Positions 15,798 through 58,467 of a stretch of 64,000 nucleotides of DNA are shown here, one piece after another. The notes under the pieces are model-generated. The model was not told the origin of the DNA, did no database searches, and worked only from the letters and a program-made list of their open reading frames with translations. A program made the position numbers and the translations under genes. Within the stretch, counting starts at the first letter, position 1, and every line of letters begins with the position of its first letter. Location of the stretch: NCBI GenBank assembly GCA_016213365.1, contig JACRAP010000023.1:15871-79870 (forward strand), written 5' to 3'. This stretch comes from Candidatus Berkelbacteria bacterium (GTDB lineage Bacteria > Patescibacteriota > UBA1384 > 2-12-FULL-50-11).

Positions 15798-16385
15798 CTA
15801 TTGTGGGCCGTAAGTGACGAACAGTCTTTGGGATTCAACATTTGTTGTGCCAAGCGCACCAATTTGAATAGTTGTATTGGACGCGACACAACCAGAAATG
15901 CAGAGTTGGCTTGCGATTGGTTCGTAAGTGCCATTTCCATTCGTAACTAATCCATCAGACGAGCCACTATTTTTAGTTGTTTCTTGCTTGTTTTCAAGTT
16001 CCCACGCAAGTAGGTACTTTTCACCCCCTGTAGTGGTTCTAAATCTAGCAAATGTTCCACCGGACGGATCTGGATCTTTACACACTGACTCGCTACTCAT
16101 ATATCCGTTGTCAACTAAATCTGCCTTAAGACCACGGCAATGATTTCCATCGCCCGATACTTCCTGTAAGAATATTGTAGTTGATTTGATGGGATAAGAA
16201 TTTTTATCCACAGCATATTGCTCCATTGCTAGCGAAATTGCTTTCGCATTGTTCTTCCTTTGCGTATCTCGTGCTCTACGTTGTGCACCGCTTAGGGCAA
16301 CAATAATTAAAGCAGCAAGAATACCGATGATAGCGATAACTACCAACAGCTCGATTAAGGTGAAACCTTTGTTTTTATTTAGCAT
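15798..16385 (-). CDS. type IV pilin, tandem paralog 2
   Basis: KG|[17 protein letters not shown]; ends YGPQ. Confidence 0.93.
   Translation of the reverse strand: MLNKNKGFTLIELLVVIAIIGILAALIIVALSGAQRRARDTQRKNNAKAISLAMEQYAVDKNSYPIKSTTIFLQEVSGDGNHCRGLKADLVDNGYMSSESVCKDPDPSGGTFARFRTTTGGEKYLLAWELENKQETTKNSGSSDGLVTNGNGTYEPIASQLCISGCVASNTTIQIGALGTTNVESQRLFVTYGPQ
16204..16376. repeat. ~173-bp direct repeat shared with 16820-16992 (pilin 5' ends)
   Basis: One mismatch seen over the repeat. Confidence 0.9.
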
Positions 16386-16461: not shown

Positions 16462-17007
16462 CTACTGTGGACCGTAAACAACGAAATATTTTACATTTGT
16501 AGTTGCATCAAGCCCTGTTAGGGTTAGCCCGTTAACTGTTAAGCTACCTGAAGTAGGTCCATATACACCATTACCCGACGTACCAGTTTTTGCGATTTCT
16601 TGGGTATTCTCAAGCAACCAAGCTAAAATATACGAAGACCCCAATGTTGCTGAACCCGTAGAGTAAGCAGCATAACTTGCTGTTTTTCCTGTAGTTGGAT
16701 CCTTACAAATTGCATTACTACTCATATAGGATGCGGTAATGAGCGTCGTAATCGCCGTAGGACAATCATAAGTTGGTACTGGGAAGTTTGCCTGAGCCGA
16801 AGCTGGATAAGAGCCGCTGTTATCCACAGCATATTGCTCCATTGCTAGCGAAATTGCTTTCGCATTATTCTTCCTTTGCGTATCTCGTGCTCTACGTTGT
16901 GCACCGCTTAGGGCAACAATAATTAAAGCAGCAAGAATACCGATGATAGCGATAACTACCAACAGCTCGATTAAGGTGAAACCTTTGTTTTTTATATTTA
17001 TTTTCAT
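16462..17007 (-). CDS. type IV pilin, tandem paralog 1
   Basis: KG|FTLIELLVV; AGGAG before ATG 17007; ends YGPQ. Confidence 0.93.
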
Positions 17008-22281: not shown

Positions 22282-22829
22282 TGGTTTCCTCCCCCTTGAT
22301 ATACTAACCCAAGTTGCATCGTTACGGTTAATATTCCGCTTTTATCAGCAGAGATGGTTTGTGACTGAACTTTTGCGGTTCTGATATTTGTATTTATTGC
22401 GCTAATAAATTTAGTAACGCTTGTTAGCGTGCCGTTAAAAGATACTGTAACCGGAACTTCTGCAATTGTTGAGGCGTCGGTGCCTGGTACGGTTTGATTA
22501 GCTGTTGTATTACCGACCGTTACGCCTGAAAATACGATTCCGGAATTAGCGCCGATAGTCTCGATCATTACCAAAACTTCAGGAATTTGGTTTTGTTTTG
22601 GCATCGCTAAATACATCGCTCTTAAGGTTGATTGTACTTGCTCGCCTTTTTCTTTGATTTGTTTCAAATCAGCGATTCTGGTTTTGTACGATTCCAATTC
22701 AACTGAACGGGCTTTAGCATCGAGTGATTTTTCGCCAAAAACCGTAATTTGTCCGCGTAGAAATGCAAACCAACCAAAAACTGCCAGTATTAAAAGAAAT
22801 ATTCCTAATCGTGAGTGTTTATTTTCCAT
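22278..22829 (-). CDS. pilO: PilO-like alignment protein
   Basis: TM helix, coiled coil, AMP...IPEVL, VPVTVSFNG; gene context. Confidence 0.8.
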   Translation of the reverse strand: MENKHSRLGIFLLILAVFGWFAFLRGQITVFGEKSLDAKARSVELESYKTRIADLKQIKEKGEQVQSTLRAMYLAMPKQNQIPEVLVMIETIGANSGIVFSGVTVGNTTANQTVPGTDASTIAEVPVTVSFNGTLTSVTKFISAINTNIRTAKVQSQTISADKSGILTVTMQLGLVYQGGGNQ

Positions 22830-23422
22830 TATTTAACCTTACTTAAATCTATTTGAGCTGAAATAGAAAAAGTTACCCTTCTAGCATCTTCGCCGCTGGT
22901 AAAACCGTTACTGGTTAATGCAACCGAGCTAAATGGAGTAGCAGAACTTTGCGTACCGTTTTGCCATGAAACTAATAAATGAGCGAGACTGGAGAGTGTA
23001 GCGGTTTCGCCGTCAGCTTTAAAGGCGCCGTTACTGGAGATATTGATAGCGGTAAGACGAACATTCTTAGGGGTAACGGCGTTTAGTTTAGCGTAAAAAC
23101 CGTTCCAATTTAACTTGCTAGCCAGGACGGTTGAAAGTTTTTCGCTACCGGTTAGTACTTCTTCAACTTGTTTATTGAGATTTTTATATTCTTCGGAGTT
23201 AAGTTCGGTTTTAGCTTGCTGAATATCACTCTGAAGTTTTTCAATTTTGTTGGTTTGGAAAAAATTTAAACCAAACATTAAGGCAATCTCGATCGCTACA
23301 ACTACGAAGATGATTTTACCAAAAATATCGAGCGGCTTGCCCGAATCTTCAACAGATGCAATCGGGTCTTGCGGGTCTTGCTCGTGCGGCTCTTTTGTAA
23401 CTAAGCGATCTTGAGTATCCAA
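22829..23422 (-). CDS. pilN: PilN-like alignment protein
   Basis: TM helix, coiled coil, W...L...TPKNVRL; TTG start with GGAGG. Confidence 0.78.
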   Translation of the reverse strand: MDTQDRLVTKEPHEQDPQDPIASVEDSGKPLDIFGKIIFVVVAIEIALMFGLNFFQTNKIEKLQSDIQQAKTELNSEEYKNLNKQVEEVLTGSEKLSTVLASKLNWNGFYAKLNAVTPKNVRLTAINISSNGAFKADGETATLSSLAHLLVSWQNGTQSSATPFSSVALTSNGFTSGEDARRVTFSISAQIDLSKVK

Positions 23423-23520
23423 CGCCCCTCCTTTTTTATCCTATGAATTTACTTTACTTGGCATTACTAGAAGCTGTCAACATTTGTAAGTTTGTAGTGA
23501 ATTATCTGCTTTGAGATTAT

Positions 23521-23598
23521 TGGCAGGGGCGACAGGAGACGAAAGTCGCACTGCGAGCTCCTAGATTCTCGCTGGCTTAGCTAGCTCGAAACCGAACC
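23521..23598 (-). repeat. tRNA-Trp 3'-end-derived direct repeat with T-loop insert, distal copy ending in CCA
   Basis: 23523-23598 matches 24355-24430 (76 bp, 4 mismatches). Confidence 0.9.
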
Positions 23599-23642
23599 AG
23601 TAAATACAAAAGTTAATACTATCAGCTATTCGGCTAAGACTT

Positions 23643-24344
23643 TCATTCGTAGAATTGCGTCCACCCTTCCATCGTTCCCTCATTACGAAATGCTTGATTT
23701 AGCTTTTCTTCTAAATCTGGCTTCGACCTATAAAGACTCTTATAAAGATTAGGGTAAAGAGGTTGGAGATAATAATATTGGGGGTATTTCACCTTCATCG
23801 CTTCGTATAACCCCGTCCAGAAAGTAAATACTTTTTTAGCATCATAAAAGCAAATCTCGCTCGGTATCGCGTTAAGCCCCAACTTATGTGTTTTATAGGT
23901 TATCTGATCCACAACCCTCTTCCATGTCTTATCGTTAACTAACGCAAGTATCTGAACATTAATAATTTCCCTGTCATTCGTACGCTCAGTTTCATAGATA
24001 TGTGAGTGAGTGAGGGCGTTTCGCACTACTATTACTTCATCATAATCCTGCTTTAAGGGGTGCGTTCCTCCAATTAGTTTATTGAATTTACTGCCAACCC
24101 TTTCATTTAGTAAGTCGGCAGACCAATTATTATTTTTTATTAACAAATATATAACCCTGTTGAAGTACCCTTCTATACTATTAACTAACAGAATTATTGC
24201 CTCAGCTGCTTGAGTGCTTTCCCCGCAGGATATTGGCTTACCTGCTTTGTGATTTGGGTTCCTCTTTGAATACTCGTATGCCAATAAGTAGTGATTCAGG
24301 GCATCTTCAGCTGTAAAAACTGGGGATATTTCCAAATGATTCAT
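23643..24344 (-). CDS. putative HEPN-domain protein
   Basis: 233-aa, predicted largely helical ORF; EGYFN segment and R-N-x3-H motif (RNALTH); ATG at 24344. Confidence 0.6.
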   Translation of the reverse strand: MNHLEISPVFTAEDALNHYLLAYEYSKRNPNHKAGKPISCGESTQAAEAIILLVNSIEGYFNRVIYLLIKNNNWSADLLNERVGSKFNKLIGGTHPLKQDYDEVIVVRNALTHSHIYETERTNDREIINVQILALVNDKTWKRVVDQITYKTHKLGLNAIPSEICFYDAKKVFTFWTGLYEAMKVKYPQYYYLQPLYPNLYKSLYRSKPDLEEKLNQAFRNEGTMEGWTQFYE

Positions 24345-24354
24345 ATTATATTTT

Positions 24355-24670
24355 GCAGGGGCGACAGGAGACGAAAGTCGCACTACGTGCTCCTAGATTC
24401 TCACTAGCTTAGCTAGCTCGAAACCGAACCTGCGACCTACGGTTGACGTACTGCTTATGGCAGGGGTGACAGGATTCGAACCTGCGACCTACGGTTTTGG
24501 AGACCGGCGCTCTACCAACTGAGCTACACCCCTGCCATAAGCAAACTATCACAGCGCTCTTCCGGGGTTTAAGCGTCGCAAGTATGCGACAAGCTTAAAC
24601 CCGTCTCGGAGGCTCGAACTGAAACTGTTCAGTTCTCGCTGGCTCCTCGACCCAACTGAGCTACACCCCT
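24355..24670 (-). other. expanded, interrupted outer copy of tRNA-Trp enclosing the intact gene
   Basis: Colinear tRNA fragments at 24652-24670, 24554-24560, 24425-24444 and 24355-24369 separated by inserts. Confidence 0.8.
24458..24533 (-). tRNA. tRNA-Trp(CCA)
   Basis: 76-nt cloverleaf; anticodon loop CTCCAAA; GTTCGAATC; encoded CCA. Confidence 0.97.
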
Positions 24671-25011: not shown

Positions 25012-25095
25012 TGCTGGGTGAGGGATTCGAACCCCCGAAGGCACAAGGCCATCGCGTTTACAGCGCGCTACGTTTGACCACTTCGCTAACCCAGC
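25012..25095 (-). tRNA. tRNA-Tyr(GTA)
   Basis: Anticodon loop CTGTAAA; long variable arm; CCA not encoded. Confidence 0.93.
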
Positions 25096-25691
25096 ATATT
25101 ATTTATTGCGTATCTTATGTCGTCCATTAGGTTATCCCACAAACGCTTGTCTGCATAGCGTATATGAACTAATCCGTTTTTCATTTTATCATTATGATTA
25201 CTGGTTAGTCCAGATTTAATATATGGTTTTGTAAACTGAGATTTAGGTATATCTAGTAGTTTAGACCAGTAACTAATAATTTTACCAACATCCCTATTTT
25301 CATGCGTGTATAAATAAACCCTTAGCTTCTCTTCATTGATTTGATAAATCTCCCTAAGCATTCTTAAGAAAATAGAAATTACTTGCGGATCTGAATTTGC
25401 TAGGTCTACAACACCGAATGATTTTTTTGAACCTTCACCTAGATATATAAAGAGTCCGGCAATAAATAACTCATTTTGTTTTGTGTTCAGTCTTGTTAAC
25501 TTCGAGTAACTCAATGGTTTTGATAAAAAAGTTAGCTTATTTGAATATACCGTTGTTCTTCTAGGAATTTCTCTCCGTTTAAGGGTTCTATATATTGACC
25601 ATTGAGAAATATTCAAAATATTTGCTATTTGTGGCGCACTCTTTCCCTGTGAATATAAATCACAAATCGATATATCTATATTTTCTTGCAT
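25086..25691 (-). CDS. HTH plus LAGLIDADG-like protein between tRNA genes
   Basis: N-terminal HTH (GKSAPQIANILNISQWSIYRTLKR); GLFIYLGEGSK helix; NSDP; YWS; probable ATG at 25691. Confidence 0.7.
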   Translation of the reverse strand: MQENIDISICDLYSQGKSAPQIANILNISQWSIYRTLKRREIPRRTTVYSNKLTFLSKPLSYSKLTRLNTKQNELFIAGLFIYLGEGSKKSFGVVDLANSDPQVISIFLRMLREIYQINEEKLRVYLYTHENRDVGKIISYWSKLLDIPKSQFTKPYIKSGLTSNHNDKMKNGLVHIRYADKRLWDNLMDDIRYAINNMLG

Positions 25692-25736
25692 TTGAATAAT
25701 AATACACAAATCAGTATCCACTTGCACTTCAAACCG

Positions 25737-25808
25737 AGCCACCTGTCGGATTCGGACCGACGACCTGCTGTTTACAAAACAGCTGCTCTACCGCTGAGCT
25801 AAGGTGGC
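25737..25808 (-). tRNA. tRNA-Thr(TGT)
   Basis: Cloverleaf; anticodon loop TTTGTAA; atypical T-loop TCCGAAT; CCA not encoded. Confidence 0.88.
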
Positions 25809-57907: not shown

Positions 57908-58076
57908 TGGCTTAATAATAGCAAAAAAAGCCATCGTTGGCTTATTTCTGTTTTTATTAATAGTGCGAGAAATGCATTCTCGAACGATTTTTTGGCGCTT
58001 TGCCTTATTATAGGCGTGACCAATCCTGCGAAGCGTTAAAGATTAGTGAGAGGATGTATTTTTCGCGCATTAAGTT

Positions 58077-58326
58077 CTTTGTCTTGGCGCTGGGCTTCCG
58101 AAAGCTGGCGGATTCCCGGGAGCTGTTAGCTCCGAGTATACTCGGCTTGCGCCTCGTTACTCGTCGTCCAACCTCGCTTTATTTAATCCTTAAGTGTTTT
58201 GTCTTGGCGCCGGTCTACGACGAACGAGCGAAAGCGAGTGAGGCGCAGACAAGTGCCTAGTTTTTTTGAGTCCTTAGTCTTGGCACTGGGCTACGGCGAG
58301 CCGCAGGCGAAACGCAGAGCGGCGCC
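58077..58326 (-). repeat. three partial copies of the 5S rRNA 3' end with hairpin inserts
   Basis: GTCTTGGC(G/A)C starts at 58081, 58201 and 58277, matching the 5S end at 58347. Confidence 0.85.
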
Positions 58327-58346
58327 TGTTTTGGTTTGAGTGTTTT

Positions 58347-58467
58347 GTCTTGGCGCCGGTCTACTTTCCCGGGAGCTGTTAGCTCCGAGTATCATCGATG
58401 CTGATGGGCTTAACTGCTCTGTTCGGTATGGGAAGAGGTGTACCCCCATCGCTTTAAGCACCAAGAC
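58347..58467 (-). rRNA. rrf: 5S rRNA
   Basis: CCCATACCGAAC..AGCAGTTAAGC motif; paired termini; downstream of 23S. Confidence 0.95.

Follow-up and report, generated by a model that had tools for sequence, protein, structure and literature searches.

The window analysed here, a stretch of 64,000 nucleotides, holds one predicted HEPN RNase gene between two almost identical repeats that copy the 3' end of the neighbouring tRNA-Trp gene, and the locus is probably a solo HEPN gene of a new family, placed at an insertion hot spot of a known kind between repeats of a known kind, in an arrangement found once among 352 tRNA loci of the bacterial family. On balance we think that this single gene entered its slot by host recombination at the repeat and not via an integrase of its own, in which case the locus would more likely reflect the rare capture of a gene at an established insertion hot spot than the work of a dedicated cassette machine.

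The repeat-flanked gene and its surroundings

The window is part of a 560-kb assembly (G000; 23 contigs, 94%-complete) that by its size and its genes appears to come from a CPR bacterium, and the locus is flanked by a tRNA-Thr/Tyr/Thr/Trp cluster on one side and a type IV pilus gene cluster on the other, all on the minus strand. The label of the pilN-like gene next to it is based on a weak Pfam match (E 0.085) together with the pilus-gene context. The features of the locus are:

22829..23422 (-), pilN-like gene that bounds the variable slot on its downstream side and has an orthologue in 17 of 18 family genomes
23451..23480 (-), sigma-70-like promoter match TTGACA-18-TAAAGT, just beyond the distal repeat and facing the pilN-like gene; a consensus match only
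23523..23598 (-), distal 76-bp tRNA-linked repeat: GGTTCG, 56-nt hairpin insert (23537-23592) and tRNA-Trp 3' end; extends to CCA at 23521
23643..24344 (-), 233-aa ORF, predicted solo HEPN-fold RNase with E58, R108-N109-x3-H113 and H115; the motif is followed by a beta-hairpin insert, and the C-terminus is extended by helices
24355..24430 (-), proximal 76-bp tRNA-linked repeat, insert at 24369-24424; no CCA end; 10 nt upstream of the ATG of the ORF
24425..24444 (-), exact 20-nt copy of tRNA-Trp positions 38-57 (3' side of the anticodon stem to T loop), running into the proximal repeat only
24458..24533 (-), intact tRNA-Trp(CCA) gene, anchor of the slot; a perfect 17-bp inverted repeat on either side (24452-24468 / 24527-24543) lengthens the acceptor stem
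24555..24670 (-), tRNA-Trp 5' copy with a D-loop hairpin insert, its first 19 nt at 24652-24670; likewise in the relatives G005 and G008

The sequence-only reading had described a 233-aa ORF with the motif RNALTH alone between two 76-bp repeats with 4 mismatches, each made of the tRNA-Trp 3' end and a T-loop insert and only the distal one ending in CCA, and this description holds in full: the repeats (23523-23598 and 24355-24430) lie 832 bp apart from start to start, all four mismatches fall within the 56-nt insert, and no second ORF of at least 60 aa is found between them, in agreement with the further statement that no protein antitoxin is adjacent. Read on the minus strand, each repeat runs from GGTTCG (T-arm 5' side) through the insert into the last 14 nt of tRNA-Trp, which are copied with one mismatch at +90 and +922 from the tRNA-Trp gene and are followed by CCA in the distal copy only and by CAA in the proximal copy. 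Exact-match runs within the pair measure 24 and 30 nt, against longest runs of 14-19 nt in 20 shuffles of the window. On the acceptor 3' strand both copies carry a G where the tRNA-Trp of the same genome has an A, and this G agrees with G005 and G006; furthermore, the 56-nt insert is absent elsewhere in the genome and from every other locus compared. Sharing both a unique insert and a non-self acceptor base indicates that one copy was derived from the other or from a close relative, and not afresh from the tRNA. Separate contigs of run X1 span the distal and the proximal copy with zero differences; since X1 is possibly the source sample, they check the assembly and do not count as independent support. 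As far as visible, the repeat-gene-repeat layout is not an assembly artefact. An Rfam scan of the region returned tRNAs and nothing else.

Several further observations concern the surroundings. At 24355-24670 (-) the tRNA-Trp gene is nested in a split copy of itself, the 5' half with a D-loop insert and the 3' half with a T-loop insert, and G005 and G008 show the same nesting, in each case with a separate inverted repeat. Within the tRNA cluster, an HTH-bearing 218-aa ORF lies at 25086-25742 (-) between tRNA-Thr(TGT) and tRNA-Tyr, and comparable ORFs of 223-227 aa overlap tRNA starts at the same cluster in G003, G011, G015 and G016. On the pilus side, a 173-nt repeat (16204-16376 and 16820-16992, 99% identical) covers the starts of two tandem pilin-like genes, which suggests a recent duplication or conversion.

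The ORF, its predicted HEPN fold and its homologues

The ORF starts with an ATG at 24344, giving 233 aa, while an alternative upstream GTG inside the repeat would give 246 aa; RNALTH corresponds to residues 108-113. Both its GC (0.383) and its GC3 (0.397) are inside the range of the genome, and its composition thus gives no sign of recent arrival. Searches of the ORF against Pfam, NCBIfam and PADLOC gave zero matches. While a word-indexed protein search found the ORF itself only, and four proteins with a profile, an exhaustive search identified 49 proteins at E <= 0.001, eight of which, besides the ORF itself, are 30-40% identical over most of the length. In the resulting alignment of 47 sequences (the ORF and 46 of the 48 others, omitting the short pieces P0017 and P0041), E58, R63, E103, R108, H113, H115, P161 and D168 are at least 90% conserved, and R108, N109 and H113 are invariant among the nine closest sequences. 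Across the homologue family, whose members are otherwise 19-38% identical, conservation is highest at the putative catalytic residues. Compared with family libraries, the 47 sequences yielded scattered weak HEPN matches (Cthe2314 2, RiboL-PSP 2, Swt1 1), and the PADLOC models gave no defence assignment across the aligned homologues.

The structural model of the ORF is confident (pLDDT 91.9, pTM 0.90) and places E58 within helix 2 (40-72) and R108/H113 at the end of a long helix (97-112), positions that coincide with the HEPN catalytic set, which according to the available portion of PMC3710099 occupies helix 2 and the end of helix 3; the acidic residue is spaced E-x4-R, as against the typical E-x3-[KR]. 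In a wide structural search, rows 1-13 were HEPN or HEPN-bearing chains, led by 2hsb (Z 8.1, rmsd 2.9, 114 aligned) and 5yep (Z 7.9, rmsd 3.5, 126 aligned), the best Z being middling for helical proteins by the scale of the tool. Six of these thirteen are labelled HEPN by structure title, and the chains remaining besides 1wwp and 1ylm we take to be HEPN or HEPN-bearing; 1wwp and 1ylm themselves are called HEPN in the accessible text of PMC3710099. Foldseek against the PDB gave none at E <= 0.001 (top rows AbiV, E 0.54), a profile of the 47 homologues had no match at E <= 10 among PDB sequences, and a viral fold search with the model returned nothing significant. In the Atlas, the ORF groups with unnamed clusters (score 0.94-0.96, TM 0.71-0.73), HEPN-type families appearing merely as leads below 0.9. 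By itself the motif R-x4-6-H is unspecific, being present in 58 of 150 genome ORFs of 180-300 aa, whereas R[NDH]x3H occurs in 6 of the 150. The HEPN assignment of the sequence-only reading is accordingly upheld by the conserved E58, R108 and H113, the confident model and the HEPN-bearing structural rows.

The ORF very probably adopts a HEPN fold, and we consider it quite probable that it is an active RNase. Most likely it represents an unnamed family of solo HEPN RNases and can be compared to HepS, a solo HEPN tRNase of the Salmonella prophage Gifsy-1 that acts in abortive infection and, in the sections of PMC13043305 at hand, is described as inactive until a phage protein binds; the same source shows with HepS that solo HEPN defence proteins can inhibit themselves without any partner. 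The ORF would then likely be a self-contained anti-phage or toxin protein, the defence role being suggested by its HEPN class and by the distribution of the gene. That the protein is instead inactive, or HEPN-like without a part in defence, and the repeat pair a neutral accident would agree with the lack of family and defence-model matches and with the middling structural scores, but is very improbable, since no other part of this divergent family is as well conserved as the putative catalytic residues and the reading frame is intact.

The gene itself is rare. None of 18 family genomes has a homologue, while 2 of 162 genomes in the class and 2 of 401 in the phylum do (the latter two counts including this genome), and pattern searches of GTDB contigs and of viral contigs revealed no relatives of the ORF. 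Three of the five other homologue loci lie less than 200 nt from a tRNA 3' end. In L022 and L023, which are not independent because they represent the same tRNA-Asn site, the homologue ends about 195 nt from the tRNA-Asn 3' end with a worn T-arm remnant on one side, and in G325 it begins 94 nt past tRNA-Gln. L021, a contig of 1.3 kb, has the homologue directly after a serine-recombinase (Recombinase-domain) ORF, and in G159 it is near a terminase small subunit gene. A repeat pair encloses the homologue at none of these five loci, and no MNT gene was found among the scanned neighbours. Judged by these positions, the HEPN gene behaves as cargo of tRNA-end islands. As a separate observation, L022 and L023 carry a 94-122-aa ORF upstream of the homologue that has no Pfam match and is absent from the locus studied here; it could be a partner of the homologue there.

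The tRNA-Trp/pilN slot and the arrival of the gene

The slot between tRNA-Trp and pilN was compared across the 17 family relatives with a pilN orthologue, the genus being represented among the genomes compared by this one alone; tRNA and pilN are on separate contigs in G002, G012 and G018. Five of the 17 (G001, G005, G006, G008 and G013) have no ORF in the slot, and the other twelve have unrelated genes. In G005, a single repeat with the same upstream flank as the proximal copy here leads straight into the pilN promoter region, as would be expected of the one-repeat empty form of this locus. Such single repeats of relatives finish in CTGC-AAA, without CCA. The Trp repeat is homologous in G000, G001, G002, G005 and G010 and is therefore old and inherited. 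The suggestion that the cargo is swappable is thus borne out by empty one-repeat sites and by other cargo in relatives, and the tRNA-Trp/pilN slot is, by sequence comparison, a swap site.

Three of the twelve occupied slots contain serine-recombinase genes or a fragment at the tRNA-Trp end: G010 and G002 each have a gene for a 480-aa serine recombinase that abuts or overlaps the tRNA-Trp 3' end (L065 1624-6228, L066; L067, L068), and G004 has a fragment. The G010 island, read over two ends of one contig (with the same pieces on two contigs in G002), encodes a MamI-type restriction enzyme and a LexA-methylase fusion, and the repeat is found at its far end. In the available part of PMC4383910, serine recombinases are stated not to be known to target tRNA genes. 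The slot cargo of the nine further relatives includes DUF2200, metallophosphoesterases and a 650-aa ORF; G007 has a run of seven ORFs, the first with HEPN-like Atlas neighbours (score 0.93, PF05168 in 38% of members). Two cargo ORFs, L072 1887-2345 (G007) and L076 3510-4043 (G011), begin 2-3 nt past the tRNA-Trp 3' end, which leaves no room for a ribosome-binding site, and tRNA processing would give a nearly leaderless mRNA; the G007 one of the two resembles HEPN proteins.

These islands bring in a reading in which a large serine-recombinase island entered at the tRNA-Trp 3' end or at the repeat, later lost its recombinase and left the HEPN gene behind as stranded cargo, with the second repeat as a by-product of insertion or of later recombination. 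The presence of serine recombinases at the same tRNA end in three relatives, with the repeat shifted beyond the cargo in G010 and G002, and the homologue directly behind a Recombinase-domain ORF in L021 favour this reading over host recombination, and cargo ORFs starting 3-10 nt past the CTGC-AAA end here, in G007 and in G011 also fit it. Nevertheless, no recombinase remnant lies between the repeats, the assembly has no gene of the resolvase family, and the G010 island displaced the repeat and did not duplicate it, and we regard this history as unlikely, though worth serious attention.

The repeats themselves are widespread. In this genome a 3' copy lies within 400 nt of 7 of 37 testable tRNAs, four of them tandem with nothing between, and tRNA 5' copies with D-loop inserts also occur. 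ARAGORN in addition predicted a tRNA-Ile with a TAT anticodon at G000 C7:9890-9963, preceded by several partial 5' copies; the TAT anticodon is rare among bacteria. At 58070-58400 (-), several partial copies interrupted by hairpin inserts come after a 5S rRNA 3' end (identity read from sequence) and represent an rRNA form of the same repeat class. Surveying this genome and 8 of the 18 relatives (54 of the 352 tRNAs having less than 4 kb of downstream sequence), we found a near 3' copy at 67 of 352 tRNAs and tandem copies at 11, with 0 for a reversed-key control, and a near-identical repeat pair around a non-nuclease gene at one, the locus described here. Five distant matches emerged from the survey, two of which were dropped: the repeat at a G015 tRNA-Ser belongs to an adjoining second tRNA-Ser, and the match at a G004 tRNA-Arg comprises 12 of 13 bases without a T-arm part. 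The distant match at a G007 tRNA-Arg is a plain island-type fragment with no insert, and in G013 (L330 16331-16860) a 78-aa GIY-YIG gene is flanked by a hairpin repeat on one side and by an additional copy of the tRNA-Lys 3' end on the other.

Beyond the family, the insert motif matches in 14 of 22 order genomes, against 3 matches for a reversed control pattern, and a pattern applied to the phylum, too narrow for this purpose, matched in 13 of 401 genomes with a single match each and hence no pairs. A pattern made from the family motif retrieves enterobacterial repeats behind tRNA-Tyr, -Ser and -Lys and, in several further phyla, repeats that follow tRNAs; among the 97 loci examined in other phyla and in viruses, 20 are tRNA-linked (two being the same place), and none of the 97 has a gene of at least 80 aa between copies. 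The hairpin motif is also seen between protein genes, away from tRNA 3' ends, at L233, L235, L244, L245, L246, L249 and L252, which come from G003, G007, G011 and G014. The repeats are a genome-wide, pan-bacterial class that almost never encloses a gene, and this, together with the five unbracketed homologues, speaks against the earlier proposal that they serve as a dedicated att site.

A related reading takes the hairpin repeats as active mobilisation sites and the gene as a non-autonomous cassette moved in trans, e.g., by small GIY-YIG nucleases that travel with such repeats. The GIY-YIG gene of G013 and the conservation and specificity of the insert motif across the order are consistent with it, but a near-identical pair around non-nuclease cargo at one tRNA of 352 and at none of the 97 loci elsewhere, homologues that lack bracketing repeats, and an assembly whose sole GIY-YIG match lies inside a 539-aa frame, with no small nuclease, make it unlikely, though it too deserves consideration. 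Unlikely as well is the most far-reaching proposal, in which tRNA-linked hairpin repeats would be recombination sites that need no integrase and at which defence cassettes of one gene are captured, excised and exchanged at tRNA ends, perhaps helped in trans by small GIY-YIG nucleases, and would also cut the cargo mRNA from the tRNA transcript, this locus being an intact cassette of the kind with a new solo tRNA-cutting HEPN defence protein.

The abundance of the repeat also bears on the earlier idea of a tRNA-mimic RNA acting as antitoxin or decoy that restrains the HEPN RNase in a type III-like pair. In its favour, neither an adjacent protein antitoxin nor an MNT-type gene in the assembly is found, the distal copy has a CCA end, E. 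coli repeats of the class are transcribed and three bind proteins (as far as the accessible text of PMC8144298 goes), and several HEPN enzymes cut tRNA (available sections of PMC13043305). However, the repeat predates the gene, greatly outnumbers it and occurs without it throughout the family, homologues exist without a repeat pair, and HepS requires no partner. Moreover, the repeat has no D arm or anticodon arm, its RNA folding is no stronger than that of shuffled sequences (z -0.16 for the copy with CCA), and the CCA differs by one base from the CAA of the other copy in an assembly where 8 of 38 tRNA genes encode CCA and relatives' repeats end in CTGC-AAA. The nested tRNA region folds well (z -7.7), a value that includes the real tRNA and its inverted repeats. 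Taken together, this leaves the RNA antitoxin with very little probability, and the proposal is not supported.

Under host recombination, the account that we prefer, DNA taken up from a related strain, or a small circle with one repeat and the gene, would recombine at the resident repeat and leave two 95%-identical repeat copies flanking the gene. Recombination between the copies would in turn loop out an 832-bp circle, restoring the one-repeat state of the relatives and losing the gene as a unit. The genome contains recA, comEC and dprA; a 76-bp homology with 4 mismatches is short for RecA. As the sequence-only reading had noted, no integrase adjoins the unit. The one tyrosine recombinase of the whole assembly is XerC/D-like, lies beside rpsF/ssb-like core genes on another contig, and reaches 129.7 bits against TIGR02249 (cut-off 265), with its best score against XerC/D. 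A joint across the unit, as expected of an empty or excised allele, was not found in the contigs of four runs, of which X1 alone covers the unit, at a depth of about 5, while X2-X4 share too little of the stretch to be informative.

Concerning expression, a scan of the minus strand detected neither a promoter match for the ORF nor a terminator in the stretch from tRNA-Trp to pilN, which makes read-through from the tRNA promoter likely. The gene would be read through from the tRNA-Trp transcript, with the tRNA-like ends possibly acting as RNA processing points; the available portion of PMC8144298 proposes the copied end of the E. coli repeat as a processing site, and the copied repeat end could likewise free the HEPN mRNA. 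By analogy with HepS, the enzyme may stay inactive until triggered, for example by a phage protein, and would then not need an antitoxin.

Comparison with known systems

Integron cassettes and CALINs consist of promoterless single genes bounded by hairpin-containing repeats, with the recombinase not nearby. The locus is likened to them by their general description, and unlike them it has tRNA-derived repeats, one cassette and no array, and a recombinase below the TIGR02249 cut-off. Type III toxin-antitoxin systems differ in that the repeat RNA here does not travel with the toxin family (0 of 5 homologue loci). Among known structures, HEPN toxins of the type VII HepT/MntA kind (5yep, 8xdj, 7ae2) match best, but the ORF is about 100 residues longer than these, and no MNT gene is adjacent or present in the 94%-complete assembly (PF18765).

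With tRNA-targeted islands (Islander; available part of PMC4383910) the locus shares a layout in which cargo is bounded by a tRNA gene and a duplicate of its 3' end, as well as site contents that vary among relatives. It departs from the islands of that source in having no integrase on the unit, a size of only 832 bp, and borders made of two hairpin-interrupted repeats instead of a tRNA and a plain fragment.

The protein resembles HepS, as far as the text of PMC13043305 extends, in being a single HEPN protein of similar size with R-x4-H, no partner gene and a place in variable DNA, and HepS is a structural match at row 23 (Z 5.1, rmsd 4.6, 132 aligned). However, sequence similarity was not detected by profile against the PDB (the presence of HepS there being assumed from the structure library), other HEPN domains match the ORF better, and the ORF occupies a tRNA slot whereas HepS resides in a prophage. 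The gene is a clean one-gene anti-phage candidate in CPR bacteria, from a HEPN family unnamed in the libraries, and can easily be tested.

The repeats compare most closely with the tRNA-linked repeats (TLRs) of E. coli, a literature that in the accessible portion of PMC8144298 goes back to Egan and Landy 1978 and Rudd 1999, and in which a TLR is defined as sharing its exact 3' end with the tRNA or rRNA upstream and TLRs are without known function, three studied rRNA-linked members excepted. Like those TLRs, the repeats here lie downstream of a tRNA or 5S rRNA gene, copy its 3' end and occur in one to several copies; unlike them, the copied end measures 14-17 nt with one mismatch, compared with 18-19 identical nt in E. 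coli (same portion of PMC8144298). The likeness to enterobacterial TLRs extends to the T-arm start, the hairpin and the 3' end, one pattern retrieving both, and by their position we take the enterobacterial matches to be the named TLRs. In mostly open-access papers, supplements excluded, we found no report of gene capture between such repeats, and in mostly open-access papers nothing joining Patescibacteria with tRNA-derived partial repeats. Since one event in 352 tRNA loci is at hand, we make no general claim on the role of TLRs. What sets this locus apart from TLRs elsewhere is the gene of a 233-aa protein between two copies (0 of 97 loci). TLRs, described in E. coli, thus extend to this CPR family and can become gene borders, and if recombination between the repeats is real and regular, they would gain a role in gene turnover.
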